Positions 1-54,504 of a stretch of 61,650 nucleotides of DNA are shown here, piece after piece. Within the stretch, counting starts at the first letter, position 1. Each line of letters starts with the position of its first letter. A program made the position numbers and the translations under genes. This DNA comes from Thermoanaerobaculia bacterium. GTDB taxonomy: Bacteria; Acidobacteriota; Thermoanaerobaculia; Gp7-AA8. The DNA is taken from the NCBI GenBank assembly GCA_035248585.1, contig DATFHJ010000254.1, forward strand, positions 1 to 61,650. Reading direction: 5' to 3'. The notes under the pieces were generated by a model, which saw only the letters and a program-made list of their open reading frames with translations, ran no database searches and was not told the DNA's origin.

Positions 1-780
1 CATGCCGGCCCAGCGCCCCATCGGCGGGCGTTGTTCGATAAGCCATTGGCCGGTGTGCTCGATGCAGAGGATCGCACGGCGATGCAGGGGGTTGATCTTC
101 GACTTGCGGCGAACCGGGATCTGCTCCTGCAGGCCCGCAGCCTGGGCTTCACAGAAGGCTCGCACCGGGCAGATGAGGCATTGCGGATTGCGTGGTGTGC
201 ACACGGTGGCGCCCAGCTCCATCATCGCGGAGTTGAAGTCGCCGACTTCCTTTCGGGGGAGGATTTCTTCGGCTCGTTGCCAAAGACGTGCCAAAGTCGC
301 CTTCTCGCGCGGGTCGGACTCGATTTTGTCGATCCGGCAGAGCACGCGGGCGACGTTGCCGTCGACGATCGGCGCGCGCTCGTTGTACGCGATCGACGCG
401 ATCGCGCCGGCGGTATAGCGCCCCACGCCGGGCAGCGCCATGAGCGCGTCGAGCGTGCGCGGCACGACGCCGTTCGCCGCGCGCGCCGCCGCGTGCAGCA
501 TCCGCGCGCGGCGGTAGTAGCCGAGTCCCGACCACGCCGCCATCACATCCTGTTCCGTGGCTTCGGCGAGCGCGCGCAGCGTCGGAAAGCGTTTGACGAA
601 CCGCGCAAAATACGGGAGCACGACTTCCATCCGCGTCTGCTGCAACATGACCTCGGAGACCCAGACGTGGTACGGCGCGTAGCGCTTGCGCCAGGGGAGA
701 GGTCGCTGGTGTTTCGCGAACCACGACTCGATGCGGCGCGCGAGGCGGGGAAGGTCCGTAGCTTGCAAACCTGCCGTCAT
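1..780 (-). CDS. mutY: A/G-specific adenine DNA glycosylase MutY (C-terminal part runs off the window)
   Basis: My translation of the minus strand from ATG at 780-778: MTAGLQATDLPRLARRIESWFAKHQRPLPWRKRYAPYHVWVSEVMLQQTRMEVVLPYF...SGLGYYRRARMLH...LPGVGRYTAGAIASIAY...CTPRNPQCLICPVRAFC (HhH-GPD plus Cys cluster). Absent from the ORF track because there is no stop inside the window. Confidence 0.85.
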   Translation of the reverse strand, partial: MTAGLQATDLPRLARRIESWFAKHQRPLPWRKRYAPYHVWVSEVMLQQTRMEVVLPYFARFVKRFPTLRALAEATEQDVMAAWSGLGYYRRARMLHAAARAANGVVPRTLDALMALPGVGRYTAGAIASIAYNERAPIVDGNVARVLCRIDKIESDPREKATLARLWQRAEEILPRKEVGDFNSAMMELGATVCTPRNPQCLICPVRAFCEAQAAGLQEQIPVRRKSKINPLHRRAILCIEHTGQWLIEQRPPMGRWAGM

Positions 781-815
781 TGTATTCTTCAGTTCGTTCC
801 GCGAGAGGACTATCG

Positions 816-1601
816 ATGAGTGAGCAGGCGCAGCCCGAAACCGAACAGGGCAAATACGTTTACTGCATCATCAAAACCGACACGCCGCGCGACTTCGGCG
901 GCGTCGGCATCGGCGGCCGGAGAGACCGCGTCTACACCGTGCATTACCGCGAGTTCGCGGCCGTCGTTTCCAACTGCCCGCTGATCGTCTTCGATCCCAC
1001 GCGCGAGAACGCGCTGGCCCACGAGCACGTGAACGAGCTGGTGATGAAGGACTTCACCGTCCTGCCGATGAGCTTCGGCACGGTCTTCCGCACCGAGAAC
1101 GACATCAAAGAGTTCCTCAAGGGCACGTACGAGGCGCTCAGCGACGTGCTCCAGAAGATGGAAGGGAAGATCGAGTTCGGTCTCAAGGTGAATTGGGACA
1201 AGGACCAGGTCATCCGCGAGATCGAGACCGAGAACGAAGAGATCCGGCGCCTCAAGGAAGAGATCTCGTCCAACACCTCGACGTCGACGTACTTTTCGCG
1301 CATGCAGCTCGGCCGCGTCGTCGAGTCGGCGCTGCAGGCGAAAGCCGACGCGTACGTGACGGAGATCTACGAAGCGCTGCGCGATGCCGCCATCGCCTCG
1401 CGCTCGAACAAGCCGATCGGCGACAAGATGATCATGAACGCCGCCTTCCTCGTCGAGCGCGACAAGACGAAGGCGTTCGACGACCAGATCTCCGACATCG
1501 CGAAAAAGTACGAGAACAAGCTCTCGTTCCTCTACACGGGCCCGTGGCCGCCGTATAACTTCGTGAATATCCGGCTCAAGTTGGAGCGCGCGGAGAGATA
1601 G
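816..1601 (+). CDS. gvpF: Gas vesicle protein GvpF/GvpL family (GvpF by position before gvpG)
   Basis: ATG 816 lies 6 nt after AGAGGA. N-terminus KYVYCIIKTD...YREFAAVVSNCP...FTVLPMSFGTVF and C-terminus LSFLYTGPWPPYNF are typical of GvpF/L. Its stop abuts the gvpG start. Confidence 0.85.
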   Translation: MSEQAQPETEQGKYVYCIIKTDTPRDFGGVGIGGRRDRVYTVHYREFAAVVSNCPLIVFDPTRENALAHEHVNELVMKDFTVLPMSFGTVFRTENDIKEFLKGTYEALSDVLQKMEGKIEFGLKVNWDKDQVIREIETENEEIRRLKEEISSNTSTSTYFSRMQLGRVVESALQAKADAYVTEIYEALRDAAIASRSNKPIGDKMIMNAAFLVERDKTKAFDDQISDIAKKYENKLSFLYTGPWPPYNFVNIRLKLERAER

Positions 1602-1925
1602 TTGGCCTTCATCCTCGACGACATCCTCCTCCTCCCCATCAAGGGGCCGATCGCCGGCTTCCGCTGGATCATGTCGACGATTCAGAAGATGGCGGACGAG
1701 GAGCTGATGAACGATCAGCCTTGGAAGGAGCGGCTGATCGAGCTGCAGATGCAGCTGGAGCTCGGCGAGATCAGCGAGGAGGACTACACGCGCGAAGAGG
1801 CGGTCGTGTTCCAGGCGCTGCGGGACATTCGCGCGCGGAAGGAAGCGATCGCGCGCGAGTACGCCGCGCAGCAGGGCGAAGAAGACGGCGGGATCGGCAT
1901 TTACACTGGCTACGGTGATCGATGA
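1602..1925 (+). CDS. gvpG: Gas vesicle protein GvpG
   Basis: TTG start directly after the gvpF stop. MAFILDDILLLPIKGPIAGFRWIMSTIQKMADEELMND...LIELQMQLELGEISEEDY matches the GvpG pattern. Confidence 0.8.
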   Translation: MAFILDDILLLPIKGPIAGFRWIMSTIQKMADEELMNDQPWKERLIELQMQLELGEISEEDYTREEAVVFQALRDIRARKEAIAREYAAQQGEEDGGIGIYTGYGDR

Positions 1926-2039
1926 CTTACAGTTTATCCCGCGCGTAGACGCGGGATCTCCTCGTGCAGCGCGGTGCCACCGGAGATGCCGCGTCTGCGC
2001 GCGGCATAAACTGAGAAACTGGCTACGGTGATCGATGAC
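1905..2039. mobile_element. Miniature hairpin-pair (MITE/BIME-like) insertion with a 22-bp flanking direct duplication
   Basis: ACTGGCTACGGTGATCGATGAC occurs at 1905-1926 and again at 2018-2039, bracketing a 91-bp insert (1927-2017). The insert ends are 32-bp inverted repeats: 1930-1961 CAGTTTATCCCGCGCGTAGACGCGGGATCTCC versus the reverse complement of 1982-2013, 29/32 identical. Each arm is an 8-bp-stem hairpin. No ORF inside. Confidence 0.55.
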
Positions 2040-3704
2040 GAGCTGCGCGCGCTCTCCTCGCGCCGCGTAATCCTCTTCGGCGGCAAAGGCGGCGTCGGAA
2101 AAACGACGCTCGCGTCGCACGCCGCGAACGTCCTCGGCGCGACGCTCCTGAACATCGAATCGCTCGACGCGCACGCGCTGTACCGGCGCTTCCTCGATCA
2201 GCATCTCGAGCAATTCATCGAGATCGGCGACCGCGGGACGTATCTCGATCGCGAAGAGCTGCGCCGCTTCTTCGAGCTCTCGCTCCCCGGCGTCGACGAG
2301 CTGATGGCCTGGATGCACATCGGCGAGCTGGTCGAAGAGAACGCCGGCCGCACCGTCGTCGTCGACACCGCGCCGACCGGCCACACGCTGCGCATGCTCT
2401 CCTCGTCCGAGCACTTCCGCCAGCTCGCGCTGGCGCTCGATGCCATGCAGGAGAAGCATCGCGCGATGGTGCAACAGTTCACGCGCCGCGTGTCGCGCGA
2501 CGCGCTCGACACGTTCATCGAGGACTTTGATGCCCGTGCGAAACGCTACCGCGCGCTGATCGATACATTCATTCCCGTCACGCTCTCGGAACCATGGGTC
2601 GTAGAGCAGACGGTGCGTCTCATTAACGAACTGGAAGGCATTGACGTCCCATTCGTCGTACTCAATCGCGCCGTGCATGACATCGACTGCAAGCTCGATC
2701 GCGAGCGCGCGAAGCGCGACGAGGCCGCGCGGGCGAAGTTCAAGAAGGTCGTTGATTTTCCGAGGTCGTGCGTACCGCTTTGGAATCGTGGAGCGGCGGG
2801 CTTTAGCCCGCCGAAACAAACCCGGCGGGCTGAAGCCCGCCGCTCCACATTGACGTTCTTCGCAGGCAAGGGCGGCGTCGGAAAAACGACGTGCGCCTCT
2901 TCGATGGCGTTGCACCTCGCGCAAACGCGGCGCGTGACGCTGCTCTCCGTCGATCCCGCGCACACGGTCCGCGACGTGTTCGCGCACGAGCCGCCGCCGG
3001 CGAATTTGACGGTCGAGGCGATCGACACGAAGGCGAAGTGGCGGCAGTTTCGCGCGACGCTCGGCGTGGAGATCGATCGCGCGCTCGACGCGCTCACGCC
3101 GAGGGGGATGACGCTCGGCTATGACGCCGAGGCCATGCAGCGGCTCGTCGAGATCGCGCCGCCGGGAGCGGACGAGCTGTTCGCCATCACGCGACTCGCC
3201 GACCTCGCGAACGAGGAAATCGTCATCGTCGACACCGCGCCGACCGGCCACTTCCTGCGCCTGCTCGAGCTCCCGCAGCAGGCCGGCGAGTGGGTGCGTG
3301 AGTTCATGCGCCTCCTCCTCCGTTATCGCGATCTCATCCCGCCCGGTTCCCTCGGTGAAGAGCTCGTGCGTGCCTCGCGCGCGTTGAAAGAGCTCGACGA
3401 AACGCTGCATTCGGATAAAGCCGCCGTGATCGTGGTGACGCGTCCCGAGCCGGCTGTCATCGACGAAACGAAACGGCTCATCGACACGCTGCAACAGCGC
3501 GGCATCACGATCGGCGGCGTGATCGCCAACTACGTCACACCCGAGAACGAGTGCAAGTGCGATCAAACGATCCGCGGCTACGAGCTGGAGGCCCTCGCTG
3601 CGCTCGACGTCACCCACACCATCGAGCGCAGCGACGAGCCGCCCATTTCATTGCAGCGACTTGAGCGCATCGGCGGCGCGCTTGTACGCCGGATCGAGCC
3701 GTAA
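2028..3704 (+). CDS. Tandem-domain ArsA/Get3-family P-loop ATPase (anion-transporting ATPase-like)
   Basis: Two homologous halves, each with GKGGVGKTT (Walker A) and DTAPTGH motifs (GGKGGVGKTTLAS...VVVDTAPTGHTLRML; FAGKGGVGKTTCAS...SVDPAHT...IVIVDTAPTGHFLRLL). GTG start lies inside the duplicated 22-mer. A repeat element is translated at the inter-half linker. Confidence 0.85.
   Translation: MIDDELRALSSRRVILFGGKGGVGKTTLASHAANVLGATLLNIESLDAHALYRRFLDQHLEQFIEIGDRGTYLDREELRRFFELSLPGVDELMAWMHIGELVEENAGRTVVVDTAPTGHTLRMLSSSEHFRQLALALDAMQEKHRAMVQQFTRRVSRDALDTFIEDFDARAKRYRALIDTFIPVTLSEPWVVEQTVRLINELEGIDVPFVVLNRAVHDIDCKLDRERAKRDEAARAKFKKVVDFPRSCVPLWNRGAAGFSPPKQTRRAEARRSTLTFFAGKGGVGKTTCASSMALHLAQTRRVTLLSVDPAHTVRDVFAHEPPPANLTVEAIDTKAKWRQFRATLGVEIDRALDALTPRGMTLGYDAEAMQRLVEIAPPGADELFAITRLADLANEEIVIVDTAPTGHFLRLLELPQQAGEWVREFMRLLLRYRDLIPPGSLGEELVRASRALKELDETLHSDKAAVIVVTRPEPAVIDETKRLIDTLQQRGITIGGVIANYVTPENECKCDQTIRGYELEALAALDVTHTIERSDEPPISLQRLERIGGALVRRIEP
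2788..2848. repeat. Family-1 double-hairpin palindromic element, copy A (intragenic, in frame)
   Basis: GTGGAGCGGCGGGCTTTAGCCCGCCGAAACAAACCCGGCGGGCTGAAGCCCGCCGCTCCAC. Read through as ...[20 protein letters not shown]... in the ArsA-like ORF. Confidence 0.9.
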
Positions 3705-4706
3705 CGCGCGCTCGTACTCCGCGCGTGCCTTCGTCTTGTCGCCTGCCGTCGCGTACGCGCGCCCGAGGCCGAAGGCGGACGTGGCGGCGTTCGGATAATC
3801 GCGTGCGTTTGTTTCGAGCAGCGCGATCGCCGCGGCGTGATCGCCCATCTTGAGCATCTGATAGCCGATGGCTTCGATGCCGGCGCGCGTGTCGACGTCG
3901 GGATAGGTCTCGCGAAAATCGGCGTAGCTCCACCGCACCGCCGCCGCGTCGGCGCGCTCGTTATAGAGCTGCTCGAGCAGCGTTTGCAGGCGCGAGCGCG
4001 AGTACTGCGGCGGCAGGAACCACGACGCCGGCAGCTCGCGGTTGATCTCGATTTTGCCCCACTGCATCGAATTCAATTCTTTCCCGGTCGCGAGATCGAC
4101 TTCGTAGGCCTTGAACGGAATCAGCACGCCGCTGACGTCTCTCCAGTCGCTGAAGCGTCCCTCGGTTTTCACGCTCTCGCCGAACGCATGCACGGGCGCG
4201 TGGTAGCGATCCGCGAGGAGAAGAAAGTTTTCTTTGTCGATGAAGTAATCGTGCGCGAAATCGTCGCGCGTCGTGACGATGACGCGATAGGCCGGGCGTC
4301 CACCGATCGTCTCCTCCGCGCCGAGCTCGACTCGCGAGCCGTGGCCGCGAAGCTCGCCGAGGCGCCAGTCGATGTACGTGCCGCGCCGCGCCGCGCCGGC
4401 GGCGTGGCCGATCGTGCGCACGACGACGCCGGGCTCGCGATAGAACTCCCACGGGCTGCCGTCGTATCCCTCCATGATGTCGGCGTTCCCCTCGGGGTCT
4501 CCGACGAGGCGGTAGAACGGCCGCGCGAAGGCCATGAACGCGTTGCCGCTGCCGGTGTAGCTGCCCTCGTGATACGTGCCGCGGCTGAAGACCAGCGTGC
4601 GGACGGCTTTGATTTTCTCGGCGCCGCCGCGCGCGGCGAGATGGCGGTCGATGACTTCGTTCACGGTGAGGGCATGTAAGAGGAGAAGTAAACTGAGCTT
4701 GTGCAT
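3648..4706 (-). CDS. Secreted LolA-like (outer-membrane lipoprotein-sorting-like) protein with C-terminal TPR
   Basis: Start at MHKLSLLLLLHA (signal-like), followed by LTVNEVIDRHLAARGGAEKIKAVRTL, typical of LolA-like sorting proteins. C-terminus DHAAAIALLETNARDYPNAATSAFGLGRAYATAGDKTKARAEYERALRLDP is TPR-like. High GC3. The upstream part of the 452-aa track ORF is antisense to gvpL. Confidence 0.7.
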   Translation of the reverse strand: MHKLSLLLLLHALTVNEVIDRHLAARGGAEKIKAVRTLVFSRGTYHEGSYTGSGNAFMAFARPFYRLVGDPEGNADIMEGYDGSPWEFYREPGVVVRTIGHAAGAARRGTYIDWRLGELRGHGSRVELGAEETIGGRPAYRVIVTTRDDFAHDYFIDKENFLLLADRYHAPVHAFGESVKTEGRFSDWRDVSGVLIPFKAYEVDLATGKELNSMQWGKIEINRELPASWFLPPQYSRSRLQTLLEQLYNERADAAAVRWSYADFRETYPDVDTRAGIEAIGYQMLKMGDHAAAIALLETNARDYPNAATSAFGLGRAYATAGDKTKARAEYERALRLDPAYKRAADALKSLQ

Positions 4707-5468
4707 GTCCTGTACGTGTACTGCCTGACGCGCGGCCCGGTTAGTCCGGAGACCGAGGGCGTCGATCAAACGCGGCGCTTTGGAACGGCGTCCATCGACG
4801 GCGTGAGCGCGGTCTTCACGGCCGTGGACGCCGAGGCCTTCTCGCAGGAGACGATCGACCAGCGTGCGAAGGATCTCGAATGGCTCGGCGCGATCGGCTA
4901 TCGCCATCAGGCCGTGATCCAGGACGTGATGAAACAGAGCGCGGTGATTCCGCTGCGCGCATTCACGCTGTTCAGCAGCGAAGAAGCGCTGCGCTCGTAC
5001 CTGCACGAAAACGCGGAGATGCTGCGCCGCGCGCTGGAGCGGCTCGAAGGGAAGCAGGAGTGGACGCTGCGCGTGGAGGTGGAGCCGGCGCGCTGGAGCG
5101 AAGCGCTGGTGGCGCGCGTCGACTCACTGCGCGAGTTGCAGCACCAGATGGAGCAAGCCGCGCCGGGAAAAGCGTTCCTGCTGCGCAAGAAGCTCGAGGA
5201 TGAGAAGAAGCGCGCGTCGCATGCGGCGGAAGAGGCGCTGGTGGCGGAGATCGAGCGCGAGGTGCTGGAGCGGCTGCGCTGCGAGACCGTGGCCGAGTCG
5301 CGCGAGCGGCGCGACGGCGCGTTTCCGCAGATCAACGTGCTGATCGAGCGCGATGAAGAAGCGACGCTGCAGGAGCTGCACGCCTCGCTGACCGACCGCT
5401 ACGCCGGCGAGGGCGTCGCCCTTGCACTGACGGGACCGTGGCCGCCGTATACGTTTGCGCATGCCTAA
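4701..5468 (+). CDS. gvpL: Gas vesicle protein GvpL/GvpF family (GvpL by position before gvpS)
   Basis: MHVLYVYCLTRG...GVSAVFTAVD...AVIPLRAFTLF...VALALTGPWPPYTF. GTG start. Overlaps the 5' end of the antisense gene by 6 nt. Confidence 0.8.
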   Translation: MHVLYVYCLTRGPVSPETEGVDQTRRFGTASIDGVSAVFTAVDAEAFSQETIDQRAKDLEWLGAIGYRHQAVIQDVMKQSAVIPLRAFTLFSSEEALRSYLHENAEMLRRALERLEGKQEWTLRVEVEPARWSEALVARVDSLRELQHQMEQAAPGKAFLLRKKLEDEKKRASHAAEEALVAEIEREVLERLRCETVAESRERRDGAFPQINVLIERDEEATLQELHASLTDRYAGEGVALALTGPWPPYTFAHA

Positions 5469-5637
5469 TCAAGAAGAAGAACTGAGCGTGCTGGAAATGC
5501 TCGATCACCTGCTCGATCGCGGGGTGGTGATCGCAGGCGAAGCCGTGATCTCGATCGGAGACGTCGACCTGCTCTACCTCGGCCTGAACGTCGTGCTGGC
5601 GAACGTCGACGCGGTCATGCGCGTGTCGAAGCGATGA
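5461..5637 (+). CDS. gvpS: Small GvpA-family gas vesicle protein (GvpS/GvpM-like)
   Basis: ATG 5461 overlaps the gvpL end by 8 nt. LSVLEMLDHLLDRGVVIAGEAVISIGDVDLLYLGLNVVLANVDAV carries the GvpA-family core. Confidence 0.7.
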   Translation: MPNQEEELSVLEMLDHLLDRGVVIAGEAVISIGDVDLLYLGLNVVLANVDAVMRVSKR

Positions 5638-6257
5638 AACACGTCGCGGTCGGCGTGCATCTGCGCCGGGAAGACATCGAGCCGCTCGCGACGCCGATCG
5701 CCGCCGGGGAGCTGTTCTTCAGCGCCGTCGCCGTTCCCGACGATCAGCCGCTCGGCGATCGCGATCTGCTTGTGCGCGTGGCGAACGTTCGCGCGCAACT
5801 ATTGGAGCGCGCGACGTTCATCGCCGTCCGCTACGGCTACACGTTCGCGCGCGAAGTCGATGCGCAACAGCTCGGGCGATGGAAGCGGGTGCTCGAAGCG
5901 AATTCGGACCGCGTCGAAATGACGATCAAAGTCGCAGCGGCTTCGCCTCGCCCGCGGCCCGACCGCGCCGCGTTCACGAGCGGCGCGGAGTATCTGCGCG
6001 CGCTGCACGAGGCGACGCAGGGCGCGGCGGCCGATCCGCGCTTTCGCGAGGAAGCGGAGCGACTGCTGCTGCCGCACGCGGTGCAGTATCGCTGGACGCA
6101 TCGCGACGAGAAATCGCTCGAGCTGACGTTGCTGGTCGCGCGCGGAGACGTTGACGCCGTTCGAAGTGCGGGCGGCACGTTGAAAGAAACAGGCGTCCCG
6201 TTTTTGCTGTCGGGACCGTGGCCGCTGGAGGCGTTCGCCGATGCTGATCACGAATGA
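5634..6257 (+). CDS. Divergent short GvpF/GvpL-like protein (third paralog)
   Basis: ATGA overlap with gvpS. ELFFSAVAVPDD...ATFIAVRYGYTF and C-terminal VPFLLSGPWPLEAF mirror the motifs of the other two GvpF/L proteins. Only 207 aa. Confidence 0.6.
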   Translation: MKHVAVGVHLRREDIEPLATPIAAGELFFSAVAVPDDQPLGDRDLLVRVANVRAQLLERATFIAVRYGYTFAREVDAQQLGRWKRVLEANSDRVEMTIKVAAASPRPRPDRAAFTSGAEYLRALHEATQGAAADPRFREEAERLLLPHAVQYRWTHRDEKSLELTLLVARGDVDAVRSAGGTLKETGVPFLLSGPWPLEAFADADHE

Positions 6258-6564
6258 AGAACAGGAGCTGCGCCAGGCGCTGACGTTCACGGAGTCGATC
6301 GTGCCGGAGCGGATCTCCGCCGATTCGGAGATCGTGGAGAACGGATTGGCGAAACTCGTTCTGTCGATCATTGAGCTGATCCGGCGCCTGCTGGAGAAGC
6401 AGGCCCTCCGGCGCATGGACGCGGGCAATCTGACGGAAGAAGAGATCGAGCGGCTCGGCAACGCGCTGATGAAGCTCGAAGAAAAGATGGCCGAGCTCAA
6501 GCGTGTGTTCGGCCTCAGCGACGAAGACCTCAACTTGAAGCTCGGTCCCGTGAAGACGCTGTGA
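6241..6564 (+). CDS. gvpK: Gas vesicle protein GvpK
   Basis: GLAKLVLSIIELIRRLLEKQALRRMDAGNLTEEEIERLGNALMKLEEKMAELKRVFGL...DLNLKLGP is the canonical GvpK core. Confidence 0.85.
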   Translation: MLITNEEQELRQALTFTESIVPERISADSEIVENGLAKLVLSIIELIRRLLEKQALRRMDAGNLTEEEIERLGNALMKLEEKMAELKRVFGLSDEDLNLKLGPVKTL

Positions 6565-6579
6565 TATTTTCCGCCGCGC

Positions 6580-6903
6580 ATGCCCATCGATGATCGGGGA
6601 GTGGTGCAGCGGCAGCCGCAGGGCCTCGTCGATATCCTCGACAAAATTCTGGACAAGGGGCTCGTCGTCGCCGGCGACGTGAAGGTGTCGCTGGCGAACG
6701 TAGAGCTCCTGACGATCCAGCTTCGCCTGGTGATCTGTTCGATCGACAAGGCCGAAGCGATCGGCATCAACTGGTGGCGCTCGGACCGCTTCTACTCGAG
6801 CGATCCGAAGGCGCTGCACGGTGCGGAGGAGTACGACGAGCTGCGCAACCGCATCGCCGAGCTCGAACGTCAATTGAGTACCCGAGAGAGGAAAGGTAGG
6901 TAA
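6580..6903 (+). CDS. gvpJ: Gas vesicle protein GvpJ (GvpA family, extended C-terminus)
   Basis: GLVDILDKILDKGLVVAGDVKVSLANVELLTIQLRLVICSIDKAEAIG. Confidence 0.8.
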   Translation: MPIDDRGVVQRQPQGLVDILDKILDKGLVVAGDVKVSLANVELLTIQLRLVICSIDKAEAIGINWWRSDRFYSSDPKALHGAEEYDELRNRIAELERQLSTRERKGR

Positions 6904-6906
6904 GTC

Positions 6907-7191
6907 ATGGCTGTTGAACGCGCACCGGGCGGTACCAGTCTCATTGACGTACTCGACCGGATTCTCGACAAAGGCATCGTCGTCGACGCATGGGTGCGCA
7001 TCTCCCTCGTCGGCATCGACCTGATTACCGTTGAGGCCCGCGTCGTGATCGCGTCCATCGATACGTACCTGAAATACGCCGAGGCCGTCGGCATCACCTC
7101 CACTGTCGCGCGTCCCGCGCTGGGACCGGGCGAAGGCGGGGGCGTGGGAGCGACCACGGCGGCAGCGCCCGCCGGCGTCACGCGGCCGTAG
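6907..7191 (+). CDS. gvpA: Major gas vesicle structural protein GvpA
   Basis: [52 protein letters not shown] is near-canonical GvpA. About 25 aa of Gly/Ala/Pro-rich C-terminal tail follow. Confidence 0.9.
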
Positions 7192-7193
7192 TG

Positions 7194-7253
7194 GTGGAGC
7201 GGCGGGCTTTAGCCCGCCGGATTCAATGGGCGGGCTAAAGCCCGCCCCTCCAC
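7194..7253. repeat. Family-1 double-hairpin palindromic element, copy B (between convergent stops)
   Basis: GTGGAGCGGCGGGCTTTAGCCCGCCGGATTCAATGGGCGGGCTAAAGCCCGCCCCTCCAC. Starts 3 nt after the gvpA stop and ends 3 nt before the S9 peptidase stop. Confidence 0.9.
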
Positions 7254-7255
7254 AG

Positions 7256-9306
<2,051 letters not shown>

Positions 9307-9310
<4 letters not shown>

Positions 9311-10080
9311 TTCGTTCCTTTCGAAAGAGCCGTCTCGAGCTCGCGCTTGAGCGATTCCTGCTGCGCCGCGGATGCGGCGAGGGCGTTGCGGATCATCTCG
9401 AAGCGCGGCGACGCCTGCTCGAGCAGCATGGCCGTGAGCCGCGAATCGGCGGCCGCCGATTCGTCGTAGAGGAAGGGCAGCAGCCACTGCGCGGCCGCTT
9501 CATAGTGCAGCGGGATGTCGTCGACCTGCTGTTGCAGACCCTCCAGGCGCTCCCATGCAGCTTGCGCCTTCGCGGAGGAGAGGCTCGTCTTGCATCGCTC
9601 ATTCGCAGCCTCATGCTGATTGATCCATGCGCTGAGCTCGGTCATCACGTCCTTCATTCGCTCGGCGTGCTCGCGCGCGAATGGGACCACGGAAGGAGTC
9701 AGTTTCGCGGGCACACCGTAGAGCTCCGCCGATGCGGTGACGCCTTCGAGGTACGCGCGCTTCAGGCCGTCGATGTCGCCGCCGTCCGCGAGGTATTTGT
9801 TCGCGCGCTGCACGGCCGCGTGCATCGCTGCTTTCGCCGACGCGCTCTGGAGGACTTCGTTCGGTCCGTACAGCATCTTCGCCGAGCTCGCGAAGTCTTT
9901 CGGATACGGCTTCGACGCGTTCGCCTTCAAATCGCGGCCGGAAAGGAGCATGGCCTGGAGCGGACCGTCGACGCGGAAGATCGCGTTTCGGGTGCGGTCC
10001 CGTTGCGCAATCGCGGACTGGCAGGGATCGGCGGACAACGATCCGGCGGCGAGGAGGAGCAGCACCGTGAGTGTTCGCAT
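9307..10080 (-). CDS. Secreted helical hypothetical protein
   Basis: MRTLTVLLLLAAGSLSA signal. ATGA overlap with the downstream S9 peptidase start (same operon). No recognisable domain. Confidence 0.6.
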
Positions 10081-10085
10081 AGGGC

Positions 10086-11735
10086 TTATCGGATATACCC
10101 CAACGATCGAAGGTTCTCGTAATACTCCTCGTTCACCGTTTGTCCTTCGTGCGCGGCATTTCGCCGGCCGTAGCTCGGGATGCGAGGCTCGTTCACCTCG
10201 TCAGCGCCGCGCAACGCGTGGCCCGGCATCTCGCGCGAGAGCGGAAATCCGAGGAGCGTGAGGATCGTCGGCGCGACATCCCACGGGCCGGCCGGCATCT
10301 CGAGGCGCAGGTTCGAAGCGAGCACGGCCTGTCCGAGCTGATGATCGCCCGGCAGGCCGATCACGATGATGGAGAAGCCGCGCCCGCGCAGCTGGCGAAT
10401 CACGTTCGTCAGGTTGTCGAGCACGCGGATCGATTGAGCGAGCTGTTTCGTCTGATCGAGCTGCGCGCGATTCAGGATCACGTCGAGCGCCGGCAGATAC
10501 ACGGTTGCGAATCGCGGGTAGCGGCGGTCGAGCTCGGTCAGGAAGCGCGTCGCCGCCAGCTCGTCGAGGCGCAGGGGATCGCCTTTCGAATAGTTGAAGA
10601 TCTCTTCCTGCGCGATCGACGTCAGCGCGCCGCTACGCTCGTCGGCGGTGGTCCACCAGTTGACCGCCAGGCTCGGGATGCCGCGCTCGGAAGCGATCTC
10701 CCAGACGTAATCGCGCCGCCGCACGGTCGGAGGCAGCGGCTGGCGCCGCGCGATGCCGAGCAGCGGCGCCGCGTTCATCAGCACGACTTCGCTGCGCGAG
10801 ACGCGCTGCAGGATGTGCCGGCCGCCGCGGAAGCGCACGCCTTCGATCGCGCGCACGCCGTGCGCGGACGTCGGAACGCCCGTGCCGAGGGACGCCCAGC
10901 GCTCGGTCGTGGACGCGCCGGCGATCGTCGGGAGCGCGGTCGAGTACAAGAGATTCGCGAGGTCGGGACGCGACTGGAGGATCTCGTTCGTGAGTCCGTC
11001 GACGGCGACGAGCGCGACGCGGGCGCGTGTCGGCGAGACGACGACCATCGGCTCGACCGCCTCGCGCTCGCGCGCCGCGTACGCGGGGATGAACAACAGC
11101 GCGATCAGCATCGCCGCGGCGACGGTCATCGGAATCGTGCGCGGCTTCTGATGAATCGCCGGCACGCGGTGCACTTCGTAAATCGAGAACGACAGCAGCG
11201 CCGCGGAGATGACGATCGTGGCGATGAGGAAGAAGATCGCCGTGAGGACGACGCCGGCGAGCAGCTCGGCGGTCGCGGGTCCGGTATCGAAGCGATACCA
11301 CCAGATCGCAATCGGCAGCACCAGCAGCGCGCTCGCGCCGAGGGAGATGCCGAGGAGCGCGAGCGGCGTTTCGATCGGCAGCGCCGGCCGGAGCTTCAGC
11401 ACCAGCGCGATCAGGATTACCAGCACGAACGAAAACACCAGCCACGCCGCGGCGTAGGTGAGAAACAGCGCCAGCGTCTCGAAGGCGGTGAGGGGAGAGT
11501 TGCGGAAGAGCATCACCGCGGTCATCGGCAGCGCCGCGAATGCAGCGATGAGCGTTCCCGCCTTCAGCGCGACCAGCACCAGCTCGAGCCAGAACGCGCG
11601 CGAGGACCAGGGATCGAGAGCGAACCAGCGCTCGATTCCGTGAGTCAGGTAACCGCGGGTGCGGAGCTGGGAACGGAGGTCGTCAACTTCGGACACTGCC
11701 CGCGACTGTAATCGAAATTCTTTCCTCCTTTCCAC
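10086..11735 (-). CDS. Polytopic membrane protein with C-terminal alkaline-phosphatase-superfamily-like domain
   Basis: GTG start. Several hydrophobic segments, then VALVAVDGLTNEIL...TTERWASLGTGVPTSAHG...VIGLPGDH, reminiscent of phosphodiesterase/AlkP-like folds. Assignment is tentative. Confidence 0.5.
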   Translation of the reverse strand: MERRKEFRLQSRAVSEVDDLRSQLRTRGYLTHGIERWFALDPWSSRAFWLELVLVALKAGTLIAAFAALPMTAVMLFRNSPLTAFETLALFLTYAAAWLVFSFVLVILIALVLKLRPALPIETPLALLGISLGASALLVLPIAIWWYRFDTGPATAELLAGVVLTAIFFLIATIVISAALLSFSIYEVHRVPAIHQKPRTIPMTVAAAMLIALLFIPAYAAREREAVEPMVVVSPTRARVALVAVDGLTNEILQSRPDLANLLYSTALPTIAGASTTERWASLGTGVPTSAHGVRAIEGVRFRGGRHILQRVSRSEVVLMNAAPLLGIARRQPLPPTVRRRDYVWEIASERGIPSLAVNWWTTADERSGALTSIAQEEIFNYSKGDPLRLDELAATRFLTELDRRYPRFATVYLPALDVILNRAQLDQTKQLAQSIRVLDNLTNVIRQLRGRGFSIIVIGLPGDHQLGQAVLASNLRLEMPAGPWDVAPTILTLLGFPLSREMPGHALRGADEVNEPRIPSYGRRNAAHEGQTVNEEYYENLRSLGYIR

Positions 11736-11740
11736 GTTGT

Positions 11741-12580
11741 ATGCGCCGGGTCCAAATGGTCGAGCCGAAGCCTCGCCGCACGTTCACCAAAGTGTTTTCA
11801 GGCCTCATCCTGCTCCTCGGCGTGATCGCGCTGAAGGCGAAGGCCGTTCTCATTCTCTTCATCGAGAAAATCCGGCTCCTTTTCGTCAATCCGTTCGAAG
11901 GCTTCGGCACGGTTCAATACGCGGTCGCCGGCGGCTCGTTTCTCGTCACCATCGCCGCGTACGCGACGCAGGCGCCGCTCGCGGTCGTCGTCGGCTTCGT
12001 CGTCATCACGCTGATCCACGAGATCGGCCACGCCATCGCCATCCGCATGAAGGGGCTGCGCGCCGGGTTCATGGTCTTCATCCCGTTCATCGGCGGCGCG
12101 GTCACGCTGAAAGACCAGCCGCACACCGTCTACGACGACGCGTTGATCGGCCTGGCCGGTCCTGCCGCGGGGACGATTGCATCGCTCATTTGTTTGCAGG
12201 TTTACAAGTGGACGCTGCTGCCGCATTGGCTCCTCATTGCCATGCTCGGCTTCATCCTCAACCTGATCAATCTGCTGCCGATCGGGATGCTGGACGGCGG
12301 GCGCATCTCCGCGGCGATCACGAAGTGGATGTGGCTCATCGGCGGCGCGGCCGTCATCTATAAAGTGTTCGATCAGCCGAACTTACTGACGATCCTGATC
12401 GGCATCCTGGCCGCGTTCCAGGTCTACGCCTCGATCATCCGTGAAAAAACGGACAAACGTTTCTACGAGATCACGTTCGGCCAGCGGGCGGGCATTGCCG
12501 CGCTCTACTTTGCGTTAGTGCTGTTTCTCGGGCATCAAACCTGGATGGCGTATGGCCGTCTGAAGCTGCTGCCGCATTGA
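11741..12580 (+). CDS. M50 (site-2 protease) family zinc metalloprotease
   Basis: HEIGHAIA zinc motif in a TM helix, LINLLPIGMLDGGRI second motif, multiple TM segments. Confidence 0.8.
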   Translation: MRRVQMVEPKPRRTFTKVFSGLILLLGVIALKAKAVLILFIEKIRLLFVNPFEGFGTVQYAVAGGSFLVTIAAYATQAPLAVVVGFVVITLIHEIGHAIAIRMKGLRAGFMVFIPFIGGAVTLKDQPHTVYDDALIGLAGPAAGTIASLICLQVYKWTLLPHWLLIAMLGFILNLINLLPIGMLDGGRISAAITKWMWLIGGAAVIYKVFDQPNLLTILIGILAAFQVYASIIREKTDKRFYEITFGQRAGIAALYFALVLFLGHQTWMAYGRLKLLPH

Positions 12581-12581
12581 T

Positions 12582-12639
12582 ATGGAGCGGCGGGCTTCAG
12601 CCCGCCGAATTGCCGGCGGGCTGAAGCCCGCCGCTCCAC
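12582..12639. repeat. Family-1 double-hairpin palindromic element, copy C
   Basis: ATGGAGCGGCGGGCTTCAGCCCGCCGAATTGCCGGCGGGCTGAAGCCCGCCGCTCCAC. Begins 2 nt after the M50 protease stop. Confidence 0.9.
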
Positions 12640-12806
12640 AGTCCGTGATAGGCTGAATTACGCCGCAAATGAGTCTCTTTTCGCTCCTCGCGCTGACGTT
12701 CGGAATGGTGGCCGCCGCGGCGGAACGCATTCCCCGTCCCGCGTTTGCGCTGATCGCGGTCAGCGGCAAGCGCGCGTCCGTGCGCCGGATCGAGAAACGA
12801 CAGGTG

Positions 12807-12861
12807 GTGGAGGAGAGGCGATCGCGCCTGTCCCGGACAGGCAGGATTGCCCGTCCTCCAC
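12807..12861. repeat. Family-2 double-hairpin palindromic element, degenerate copy (no spacer)
   Basis: GTGGAGGAGAGGCGATCGCGCCTGTCCCGGACAGGCAGGATTGCCCGTCCTCCAC. One mismatch in each arm stem. Lies in the secA upstream region. Confidence 0.7.
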
Positions 12862-12974
12862 TCGTACGCAGGCTCATCACTCCCCTTCGCGGCACCGCCG
12901 CCGCGCGCGCGCCTGGCTTCGGCTGCTGACGCCTCCCGTCCGCCGCGCAGCATTCTTTTGGAAGCGAGATCCTC

Positions 12975-15713
<2,739 letters not shown>

Positions 15714-30498: not shown

Positions 30499-31806
30499 TC
30501 ACTCCAGCTCCGACCAATCGATCGTCGTCGGCACGTTCGACTTCGCGAACAGCGACGACAGCATCTCCTGCGGCGTGTAGATCCGCAGGTCGCCAAGCTC
30601 GCTTGGGCGGCGGTTTTTCATCGTGAACAGCGTCCGCTGCGTGACGTAGTCGAAGTTCGCGTAAAAGTCGTCGTCCTTTTTCTGCTCGAACATCGTCTTC
30701 AGCGTGTTGAGCTGGCGGGCCAGGTGATCGTCGAGCGCCTCTTCCATCGACGGCGCGTCGGTGATGAGCTTCGTCTTCTTCGGTGTCGGCTCGAGTCCGA
30801 CCGCGAGGCGCAGGTCATCCAGCTCTTTCGCGTAACGGTCCGTCTTCAAGGACTTTTTCTTTGCCTGCGGCAGGAGCAGTGCGGGGATGCGGTTGCAGTT
30901 CGCCTGATGAATCATGTCGCTGCGCGTGATCCAGCCGAGGTTCGTCACGCCGCAGCGCGCGGAGACGTTGCGGTGCAGGTTGTCGAGGAACGGCTTGACC
31001 GCGGTGTTGAACGAGTCCTCGACGCCGTTGAAGAGGTTCAACACGTAGTGCACGCGGAACTCGTCGATCGTCGTCTGCACCGTGCGCGTGACCGGGTGAT
31101 CGCCGAGGTTCTGGGCGAGATCGAGCGCGAACGCGTCGAGGTTCTGTACCGACGAGTCGTAGACGTCTTCGACGCGGTCGATCAGGTCGTTGATCAGCTT
31201 CCAGAAATCGAGGCTGCGGTCGACGGTGGCGAAGAACGGCGACGACTTGCTGAAGATCAGCCGCAGTTTGCGGAAGAGGATGGCCTTCACGATGTCGGAC
31301 GCGGCGAGCGTGGCGCTCGGCAGGTGCGGCGTGAAGATGAGAATCCCGGAGTTGGAGAAGGGGAGGAAGTCGATCACGTTGGCGTCGAGGCCCGCGCGGA
31401 GATCGAGCACGACGTATTCGGCGGGCAGCGAGTTGATGGCCTCCATCAGCTTCGCTTTGTAGGCCGGGCCGAAGTTCGTGATCTCTTCGATCAGGTGCAG
31501 CGGGCCGGCCACGAAGCCGAAGCTGACGAACTTACCCTGCGGATCGAGCTTGCGGTCGAGGCTGGAGATGCAGTTCTCCAGCGGCTCGTTCTTGCGGAAG
31601 AAGTGGTAGAGATCTTTCGTGATCGGAACGTCGATGGCGTTGCGGATGGCGGACGTGCCGGTGTCGAGATCGACGAGCACGGTGGGGGCGTGGCGCGAGA
31701 GCGCGAGGGCAAAGTTGATCGCGAACGTGGTCTTTCCCACGCCGCCCTTGCCTGACGAGACGGGGATGATCCGTTTGATTGCCACCTGACGGCACCACAC
31801 TACCAC
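30499..31806 (-). CDS. MinD/ParA-family P-loop ATPase with ~170-aa C-terminal extension
   Basis: Deviant Walker A SSGKGGVGKTTFAINFA, VLVDLDTG, VVLDLRAG. The long non-ATPase C-terminal region has no motif I recognise. Confidence 0.75.
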   Translation of the reverse strand: MVVWCRQVAIKRIIPVSSGKGGVGKTTFAINFALALSRHAPTVLVDLDTGTSAIRNAIDVPITKDLYHFFRKNEPLENCISSLDRKLDPQGKFVSFGFVAGPLHLIEEITNFGPAYKAKLMEAINSLPAEYVVLDLRAGLDANVIDFLPFSNSGILIFTPHLPSATLAASDIVKAILFRKLRLIFSKSSPFFATVDRSLDFWKLINDLIDRVEDVYDSSVQNLDAFALDLAQNLGDHPVTRTVQTTIDEFRVHYVLNLFNGVEDSFNTAVKPFLDNLHRNVSARCGVTNLGWITRSDMIHQANCNRIPALLLPQAKKKSLKTDRYAKELDDLRLAVGLEPTPKKTKLITDAPSMEEALDDHLARQLNTLKTMFEQKKDDDFYANFDYVTQRTLFTMKNRRPSELGDLRIYTPQEMLSSLFAKSNVPTTIDWSELE

Positions 31807-37366: not shown

Positions 37367-37428
37367 GTGGAGCGGCGGGCTTTAGCCCGCCGTTTTCGTT
37401 TCCGGCGGGCTGAAGCCCGCCGCTCCAC
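37367..37428. repeat. Family-1 double-hairpin palindromic element, copy D (between convergent stops)
   Basis: GTGGAGCGGCGGGCTTTAGCCCGCCGTTTTCGTTTCCGGCGGGCTGAAGCCCGCCGCTCCAC. The outer palindrome extends to CTGTGGAG...CTCCACAG (37365-37430). Lies between the clpX and yciI-like stops. Confidence 0.9.
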
Positions 37429-40233: not shown

Positions 40234-40292
40234 GTGGAGCGGCGGGCTTCAGCCCGCCGAAAAAGCCGGCGGGCAGCAGCCCGCCGCTCCAC
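40234..40292. repeat. Family-1 double-hairpin palindromic element, copy E
   Basis: GTGGAGCGGCGGGCTTCAGCCCGCCGAAAAAGCCGGCGGGCAGCAGCCCGCCGCTCCAC. Begins 11 nt after the lon stop. Confidence 0.9.
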
Positions 40293-47786: not shown

Positions 47787-48329
47787 ATGGCGGATGAGGA
47801 CGACGTCTCGGACGTCGAGGCCGTGCTGGCGGGAGACGTCGAGCGCTTCGACGGAATCGTCGAGCGCTGGCAGGGGCCGCTCGTGAACCTCGCGTGGAGA
47901 TTCGTGCGCAACGAGCACGTGGCGGAAGAGCTGGCGCAGGAGGCGTTTCTAAAATGCTTCCGCCGGCTCTCGCAGTGGCGACGCGACTCGCGCTTCTCGA
48001 CGTGGCTGTTCGCGCTCGCGCTCAACGTCTATCGCTCCCACCTGCGTGGAGCGGCGGGCTTCGGCCCGCCGGACGACCTCGGCGGGCTAAAGCCCGCCGC
48101 TCCACTGGATCACGAAATCATGGCGGAACAGGAGCGCGAGCTCGTGCGCCGCGCGGTGGCGCATCTTCCGGCGAAGTACCGCGATCCCCTCATCCTGTTC
48201 TACTTTCAGGAAGAAGACGTCGGCGAGACGGCGCGCATTCTTCGCCTGCCGGCCGGCACGATCAAAGCGCGCCTGCATCGCGGGCGGGCATTGCTCAAGG
48301 AGCGATTACAACGATGGATGACTCGCTGA
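47787..48329 (+). CDS. ECF (sigma-70 family group 4) RNA polymerase sigma factor
   Basis: Region 2 LVNLAWRFVRNEHVAEELAQEAFLKCF...STWLFALALNVYRSHLR. Region 4 LPAKYRDPLILFYFQEEDVGETARILRLPAGTIKARLHRGRALLKERL. A repeat copy is translated in the linker. Confidence 0.85.
   Translation: MADEDDVSDVEAVLAGDVERFDGIVERWQGPLVNLAWRFVRNEHVAEELAQEAFLKCFRRLSQWRRDSRFSTWLFALALNVYRSHLRGAAGFGPPDDLGGLKPAAPLDHEIMAEQERELVRRAVAHLPAKYRDPLILFYFQEEDVGETARILRLPAGTIKARLHRGRALLKERLQRWMTR
48046..48105. repeat. Family-1 double-hairpin palindromic element, copy F (intragenic, in frame)
   Basis: GTGGAGCGGCGGGCTTCGGCCCGCCGGACGACCTCGGCGGGCTAAAGCCCGCCGCTCCAC (60 bp). Translated as [20 protein letters not shown]. Confidence 0.9.
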
Positions 48330-54443: not shown

Positions 54444-54504
54444 GTGGAGCGGCGGGCTTTAGCCCGCCGAATCGTCCTCGGCGGGCTAAAGCCCGCCGCT
54501 CCAC
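54444..54504. repeat. Family-1 double-hairpin palindromic element, copy G
   Basis: GTGGAGCGGCGGGCTTTAGCCCGCCGAATCGTCCTCGGCGGGCTAAAGCCCGCCGCTCCAC. Begins at the base after the MCE-gene stop, 19 nt before the ugd start. Confidence 0.9.

Follow-up and report, generated by a model that had tools for sequence, protein, structure and literature searches.

A tandem ArsA/Get3-family ATPase in a GvpN-less gas-vesicle gene cluster: a candidate chaperone for hydrophobic Gvp proteins

Based on our analysis of a 61,650-nucleotide (nt) stretch from a Thermoanaerobaculia bacterium (GenBank assembly GCA_035248585.1, contig DATFHJ010000254.1; the whole stretch is hereafter called the window), we report that the open reading frame (ORF) at 2028-3704 on the plus strand, lying within a gas-vesicle (gvp) gene cluster, is a genuine gene for a two-domain ATPase of the ArsA/Get3 family. 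The association of such genes with gvp genes has been in print for 15 years, and the window gene is a further member of a described family. We tentatively propose that its 558-amino-acid (aa) product is a Get3-like, ATP-gated holdase for the hydrophobic segments of GvpA-family proteins that works together with GvpF and GvpG.

The ORF starts with GTG and follows gvpG. Its product matches the Pfam family ArsA_ATPase (PF02374; E=1.2e-66, spread over three stretches) and passes the NCBIfam model TIGR00345 (GET3_arsA_TRC40) with 215.5 bits against a cut-off of 135. The N-terminal half (aa 1-250; 2028-2777) and the C-terminal half (aa 275-558; 2850-3704) are homologous to each other (29% identity, E=1e-22), and each carries a P-loop, GKGGVGKTT (aa 19-27, nt 2082-2108, and aa 280-288, nt 2865-2891), and a switch II, DTAPTGH (aa 113-119, nt 2364-2384, and aa 402-408, nt 3231-3251), both of which are invariant in each half among 60 homologues. 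An earlier reading of this DNA, made by a model from the letters and their translations (the sequence-only reading), had described an ORF behind gvpG with two homologous halves and these motifs, and the profiles and the half-to-half identity bear it out. In a neighbour-joining tree every N-half stands apart from every C-half, which points to one ancient fusion. The idea that 2028-3704 holds two genes, split by a pair of hairpins of the repetitive extragenic palindrome (REP) kind in the linker, was rejected: there is no in-frame stop, and the homologues are single chains.

The AlphaFold2 (AF2) model of the ATPase is a pseudo-dimer (predicted local distance difference test [pLDDT] 84.1, predicted template-modelling score [pTM] 0.83). 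Foldseek confirmed an ArsA/Get3 fold in this model, with probability 1.00 to ArsA, ArsA1 and Get3 entries; the top matches are the closed ArsA 9nbo (template-modelling [TM] score 0.69) and Chlamydomonas ArsA1, and each half also matches Get3 complexes with a client transmembrane domain (TMt 0.67-0.71). The best sequence match in the PDB is Chlamydomonas ARSA1, itself a tandem ArsA/Get3-family ATPase (E=2e-34). In the C-half, C509-K-C511 (nt 3552-3560) aligns with the CxxC of Methanothermobacter thermautotrophicus TRC40 (3zq6), while the N-half has a single cysteine, Cys221 (nt 2688-2690), at the position homologous to Cys509. In the alignment of homologues Cys221, Cys248 and Cys509 never vary and Cys511 hardly does; on this pattern a structural metal site of the Get3 kind would be plausible. 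The protein shares with Get3/TRC40, including the tandem ARSA1 (5zme/5zmf), which is likewise a single-chain pseudo-dimer, the fold, the P-loop, DTAPTGH, the DPAH of switch I in the C-half, and a cysteine motif at the TRC40 CxxC position. It differs in having a CxC and a single cysteine where Get3 has two CxxC, in its shorter helical subdomain, in one degenerate ATP site, and in a gene context of gas vesicles instead of membrane insertion, with neither a tail-anchored client nor a Get1/2- or Get4/5-like partner evident at the window locus. Such partner genes were also not apparent among the neighbours of the ATPase gene in L081, no genome-wide search having been made; L081 is a Joint Genome Institute (JGI) metagenome contig syntenic to window positions 332-13486 at 87-95% nucleotide identity, and its ATPase (P0001) is 86% identical to the window protein.

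The family was described by Castillo & Saier in 2010, who found two-domain ArsA homologues in the gvp operons of four phyla, in Bacteroidetes/Chlorobi, a Geobacter, cyanobacteria and Acidobacteria bacterium Ellin345, the last with two L/F genes and J, K and M alongside; they pointed out that these homologues lack the three ArsA cysteines and proposed that the homologue provides energy for a step of gas-vesicle biogenesis other than the one served by GvpN (PMC2963123). A 2017 study then placed ArsA in a cyanobacterial co-evolving gene set together with eight Gvp proteins (PMC5464585). The sequence-only reading had been aware of no ArsA-type component of gas vesicles; these two papers contradict it. 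Like the members of Castillo & Saier's clusters 4 and 6, which include Aba1 of Ellin345, the window ATPase has the tandem architecture inside a gvp cluster, lacks the three ArsA cysteines, and has no arsR or arsB partner or other ars genes, and like that of Aba1 its cluster has two L/F genes, J, K and an M-like gene and no GvpN. It differs from the described homologues in being shorter (558 aa versus 634 aa), in its Thermoanaerobaculia-like lineage as opposed to Ellin345, in the loss of the switch-I segment from its N-half, in a linker that consists of a REP element, and in the uncoupling of its gene from gvpG by a 91-nt insertion. Under the names arsenite- or anion-transporting ATPase combined with gas vesicles, Castillo & Saier was the only paper found, and no literature linking gas vesicles to Get3 was found.

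The linkage recurs across genomes. When one genome per species was scanned for relatives of the ATPase and gvp genes were sought within 10 kb, 60 of the 80 loci returned had gvp genes, and 56 had at least 3 gvp gene types. The gvp-linked loci come from more than 12 phyla: they include Acidobacteriota, Gemmatimonadota, Myxococcota, Planctomycetota, Verrucomicrobiota, Hydrogenedentes, Chloroflexota, Cyanobacteria, Chlorobi, Bacteroidota, Spirochaetales, Nitrospinota, Patescibacteria and a methanogen. Among the tandem forms the order gvpF-gvpG-arsA is kept. The other 20 loci, where gvp genes are lacking, consist mainly of single-domain Get3-like genes of Asgard and other archaea, together with some from cyanobacteria. 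In the reverse direction, a GvpF query on metagenomes returned 80 clusters of the window type, 51 of them with enough downstream sequence to be assessed, and in 43 of these the ATPase gene follows gvpG. The co-occurrence survey that the sequence-only reading had called for therefore finds recurrent linkage from both sides. Within the genome set, four cyanobacterial loci (L018, L023, L033 and L046) have a tandem ArsA-like gene beside a divergently oriented gene for a CDC48-like double AAA+ protein and no gvp gene within 10 kb. Inside the gvp cluster of gvp-bearing cyanobacteria, Chlorobi, Bacteroidota and Planctomycetota these two genes are again neighbours, which suggests that an ArsA-CDC48 module exists. 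Of additional note, full gas-vesicle clusters with an ArsA-like gene were seen in two bacteria of the candidate phyla radiation, Candidatus Doudnabacteria (L014, where gvpN and a CDC48-like gene are also present) and a member of Patescibacteria (L077), as well as in an archaeal metagenome-assembled genome (MAG) of Methanomicrobiaceae (L060); a 4.2-kb Altiarchaeota locus (L021) has only gvpN beside a tandem ArsA-like gene.

The gvp-linked loci fall into two architectures. GvpN and CDC48 seeds were verified with NCBIfam before the locus searches. In Type I, GvpN and usually the CDC48-like double AAA+ gene accompany the ArsA-like gene, which is either tandem or single-domain; GvpN is found beside the ArsA-like ATPase in 29 of the 60 gvp-linked loci. 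Type II, to which the window belongs, has neither GvpN nor the CDC48-like gene, and its members include the Thermoanaerobaculia loci L001-L004, Pyrinomonadaceae, Gemmatimonadota, Longimicrobiales, Vicinamibacterales, Labilithrix and one Planctomycetota MAG, which form one or two clades in trees. The cluster type gvpF-G-arsA-L-S-X-K-J-A, without GvpN and GvpC, is widespread in soil Acidobacteriota, Gemmatimonadota, Myxococcota and Planctomycetota. No GvpN was found in the 80 Type II metagenome loci, the verified GvpN seeds had no match in the 61.6-kb window, and the GvpN model TIGR02640 is not among the best 25 NCBIfam matches of the window ATPase. Eight Type II clusters (L138, L140, L143, L144, L145, L153, L158 and L161) have the order F-G-L-S-X-K-J-A without the ArsA-like gene; their GvpA is 68-89% identical to that of the window. 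They form a single clade, sister to the window's own and nested among ArsA-bearing clusters, a placement that points to one secondary loss of the ATPase gene with the cluster apparently persisting afterwards. No P-loop ORF was found within the cluster in the 6 ArsA-less clusters inspected in detail, and the ArsA-less clusters appear to be ATPase-free gas-vesicle clusters.

The two ATP sites of the window protein are probably unequal. From the N-half about 21 residues are missing, switch I (S-V-D-P-A-H...; the 'TDPA' segment) among them, whereas the C-half, with SVDPAH at aa 307-312 (nt 2946-2963), and many homologues retain the segment. Among 118 close homologues, 39 have lost the N-half switch I, and the C-half motif is present in all 118. 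Going by this ATPase family in general, in the window lineage the N-terminal site would probably bind nucleotide without hydrolysing it. The sequence-only reading did not mention this deletion. In comparison with L081, the ratio of nonsynonymous to synonymous substitution rates (dN/dS) is 0.19 for the whole ATPase gene, 0.14 for the N-half and 0.18 for the C-half, comparable to gvpL and gvpG (0.18); the ATPase gene is under purifying selection. We considered whether the N-half deletion, the REP linker and the upstream insertion might mark a decaying pseudogene and rejected this, given the intact frame, the invariance of the other motifs and the dN/dS of 0.19.

We propose the following scheme for this accessory ATPase. 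The single-chain pseudo-dimer of the ArsA/Get3 (SIMIBI) fold would close its halves upon ATP binding and, as a clamp or holdase, shield the very hydrophobic N-terminal segments of GvpA, GvpJ and GvpS. GvpF and GvpG, encoded in every case ahead of the ATPase gene, would pass these clients on to it, and their release at the nascent vesicle would come with ATP hydrolysis by the C-terminal site, while the N-terminal site, its switch I lost, would bind nucleotide, probably without hydrolysis. The ATPase would thereby aid assembly and not be indispensable to it. Iburg et al. (2024) proposed a chaperone role toward the hydrophobic GvpA for GvpF and subsequently GvpG, with GvpN driving elongation (PMC11445434), and a gene placed directly after gvpF-gvpG fits with its belonging to the chaperoning stage. 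Since the conserved upstream neighbours are the proposed GvpA chaperones, a chaperone role for the ATPase toward hydrophobic Gvp proteins, one of the two possibilities raised by the sequence-only reading, appears plausible. Several points weigh against the proposed holdase. No experimental work on the function of a gvp-linked ArsA-like ATPase was found in the literature. The window cluster has no tail-anchored Gvp protein, and the helical subdomain is about 10-20 residues shorter than that of Chlamydomonas ARSA1 after switch II. The cyanobacterial members that stand beside the CDC48-like gene and have no gvp neighbours hint that the role is not restricted to gas vesicles. The eight-cluster clade persists without the gene, and the ATPase may therefore be helpful and not indispensable, or be supplied in trans. 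The proposal bears on how the extremely hydrophobic GvpA stays soluble and enters a growing gas vesicle, and gas-vesicle clusters are being engineered as acoustic reporter genes. If the scheme holds, a clamp of the Get3 type linked to the proposed chaperones GvpF and GvpG would give gas-vesicle assembly a concrete and testable factor, and the compact nine-gene, GvpN-less cluster would be a convenient system in which to test it. Our comparison adds to the literature a division into two architectures by the presence or absence of GvpN and CDC48, a sister clade in which the gene was naturally lost, the degenerate N-terminal ATP site and the Get3-like cysteine motif; with these refinements the question of what the ATPase does becomes readily testable.

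The explanation suggested first by the sequence-only reading was that the ATPase substitutes for the missing GvpN. In its full form, the ArsA-like protein would supply the energy for GvpA insertion and for growth from bicone to mature vesicle in place of the AAA+ GvpN, which is required for elongation in the studied systems (PMC11445434). We regard this as unlikely, even though no P-loop gene other than the ATPase gene lies in or beside the cluster of the window, of L081, of about 20 GvpN-less genome loci or of those metagenome loci of the type that bear the ArsA-like gene, the 80 metagenome loci contain no GvpN, and GvpN-less clades across Acidobacteriota, Gemmatimonadota, Myxococcota and Planctomycetota retain the gene. 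GvpN (AAA+, TIGR02640) does resemble it in being an ATPase with its gene in gvp clusters and a presumed part in powering assembly, but it belongs to an unrelated fold class, AAA+ as against SIMIBI. Because GvpN and the ArsA-like ATPase co-occur in Type I clusters, usually with the CDC48-like AAA+ as well, the two would do different things and are not equivalents, and the ancestral role of the ArsA-like ATPase would be distinct from that of GvpN. The eight identically ordered clusters with neither ATPase also weaken the substitution idea, and a degenerate ATP site in the window lineage is unexpected for an energy-demanding step. The absence of GvpN, moreover, was read at the loci, and a gvpN could lie elsewhere in a genome. 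The suggestion thus finds weak support, with both ATPases in 29 of 60 loci and neither in a whole clade. A mixed version, in which the Get3-like pseudo-dimer of the GvpN-less type would be the sole energy-using assembly factor, delivering GvpA into the shell and so replacing GvpN, is in our judgement similarly doubtful.

Two further explanations would take the ATPase out of vesicle building altogether, and both seem to us less probable still. ATPases related to it place carboxysomes and other organelles within bacterial cells, and the protein could position or space gas vesicles in the manner of ParA/MinD, organising or partitioning them in the cell; it is of the same SIMIBI class, has the deviant Walker A GKGGVGKT, and gives weak matches to ParA, MinD and CbiA models over the P-loop region. 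The strong matches are nevertheless to ArsA/Get3, those to ParA and MinD span only about 35 residues around the P-loop, the top 50 of the fold search are ArsA and Get3 throughout, and no partner or adaptor gene and no DNA-binding or membrane-targeting feature was identified, so that we consider such a role improbable. Far more remote is an ordinary arsenite-efflux ArsA that sits in the gvp cluster by chance. Homologues are indeed auto-annotated as arsenite-transporting ATPases, and the arsenical ArsA proteins (E. coli R773, PDB 1f48; L. ferriphilum, PDB 9nbo) are tandem pseudo-dimers of similar size, the closed 9nbo being the best full-length structural match. The window protein, however, fails the equivalog model for arsenical pump-driving ArsA, TIGR04291, by a wide span (128.3 bits against a cut-off of 650). 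No cysteine in it corresponds to the metalloid-binding Cys113, Cys172 or Cys422 of the E. coli protein, in agreement with the earlier report on the family (PMC2963123): in a phmmer alignment to 1f48, Cys422 is opposite Gly88, Cys113 is opposite a Q-R-L-V-E-I segment and Cys172 falls in a gap. In L081 the genes called over 8 kb upstream and 10 kb downstream include no arsB, acr3, arsD or arsR, and the window neighbours of the ATPase are gvp genes, mutY and a TPR gene. The sequence-only reading had named an arsB or arsD partner and the metalloid cysteines as the features to look for, and neither was found. Together with gvp linkage in more than 12 phyla, these features essentially exclude an arsenic-pump role for the window ATPase.

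In the window genome, the ATPase gene is separated from gvpG by a 91-nt hairpin element that resembles a miniature inverted-repeat transposable element (MITE; 1927-2017), with 25-nt terminal inverted repeats and a predicted RNA hairpin of -72.8 kcal/mol (z=-6.7). A 22-nt target duplication (1905-1926 = 2018-2039) lies on either side of it, as a result of which gvpG has its stop and the ATPase gene its start again. The element is present in a single copy in the window and is absent from L081, where the gvpG/ATPase junction is uninterrupted, CTGGCTACGGTGATCGATGAC being followed directly by GAGCTG, and the ATPase gene (start at 9208) shares 11 nt with the end of gvpG (stop at 9218). The element-free contig thus bears out the 11-nt overlap that the sequence-only reading had deduced for the time before the insertion, and supports the translational coupling it had drawn from it; judged from this comparison, the coupling to gvpG is broken in the window genome by the insertion. 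A second kind of element lies inside the gene: a pair of REP-like GC hairpins (2795-2841) forms the in-frame inter-domain linker at about aa 256-272, which is predicted to be disordered (AF2 pLDDT below 50 at aa 255-267). Each such pair consists of GGCGGGCTnnAGCCCGCC twice, about 29 nt apart, and the window holds seven, the others being at 7201-7246, 12589-12632, 37374-37421, 40241-40285, 48053-48098 and 54451-54497. The pair is missing from the ATPase linker of L081. Where their position relative to gene ends was checked, the pairs lie just 3' of a gene. The linkers of the homologues P0021 and P0011 also look REP-derived, with G-F-S-P-P and G-L-K-P peptides.

The cluster, gvpF-G-arsA-L-S-X-K-J-A, is complete in the window, with the ATPase gene between gvpG and gvpL and all gvp genes on the plus strand. 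It opens with gvpF (GvpL/GvpF family; 780-1601, likely start ATG 816; PF06386 E=2e-77; 98.5% aa identity to the L081 orthologue) and gvpG (1602-1925; PF05120 E=1.5e-17). After the ATPase gene come gvpL (GvpL/GvpF family; 4701-5468; PF06386 E=9e-47), a small GvpA-family gene that is gvpS/M-like (5455-5637; PF00741 E=1.5e-12), a divergent GvpL/F-like gene that we name gvpX here (5634-6257; PF06386 E=2.6e-07), gvpK (6241-6564; PF05121 E=8e-33), gvpJ (6580-6903; PF00741 E=1.5e-16, matching the GvpJ and GvpA family models), and gvpA, for the major shell protein (6907-7191; NF006874, 118 bits against a cut-off of 100). Upstream of gvpF a divergent mutY marks the boundary of the cluster, and thus no GvpN would be hidden just beyond the window. 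The ATPase is the product of the only Walker-A ORF of at least 200 aa from position 1 to about 30.5 kb, in line with its description in the sequence-only reading as the only nucleotide-binding protein of the locus. A second GKGGVGKT protein (30499-31806, minus strand, 435 aa) was considered as another ArsA and rejected, having only MinD/ParA/Mrp-like P-loop matches and being unrelated to the gvp cluster. A scan of 400-7400 for promoters and terminators gave nothing on the plus strand beyond shuffled expectation. The gvpX product has 207 aa, with a weak GvpL/F match only and no NCBIfam match, and is kept across the cluster type. Finally, a convergent TPR-repeat gene on the minus strand (3648-4724, start approximate; Pfam TPR_16 and others, with a weak LolA-like match) is wedged between the ATPase gene and gvpL, its 3' end overlapping the ATPase gene by about 57 nt; a 358-aa orthologue lies at the same site in L081, and the gene is absent from L001.

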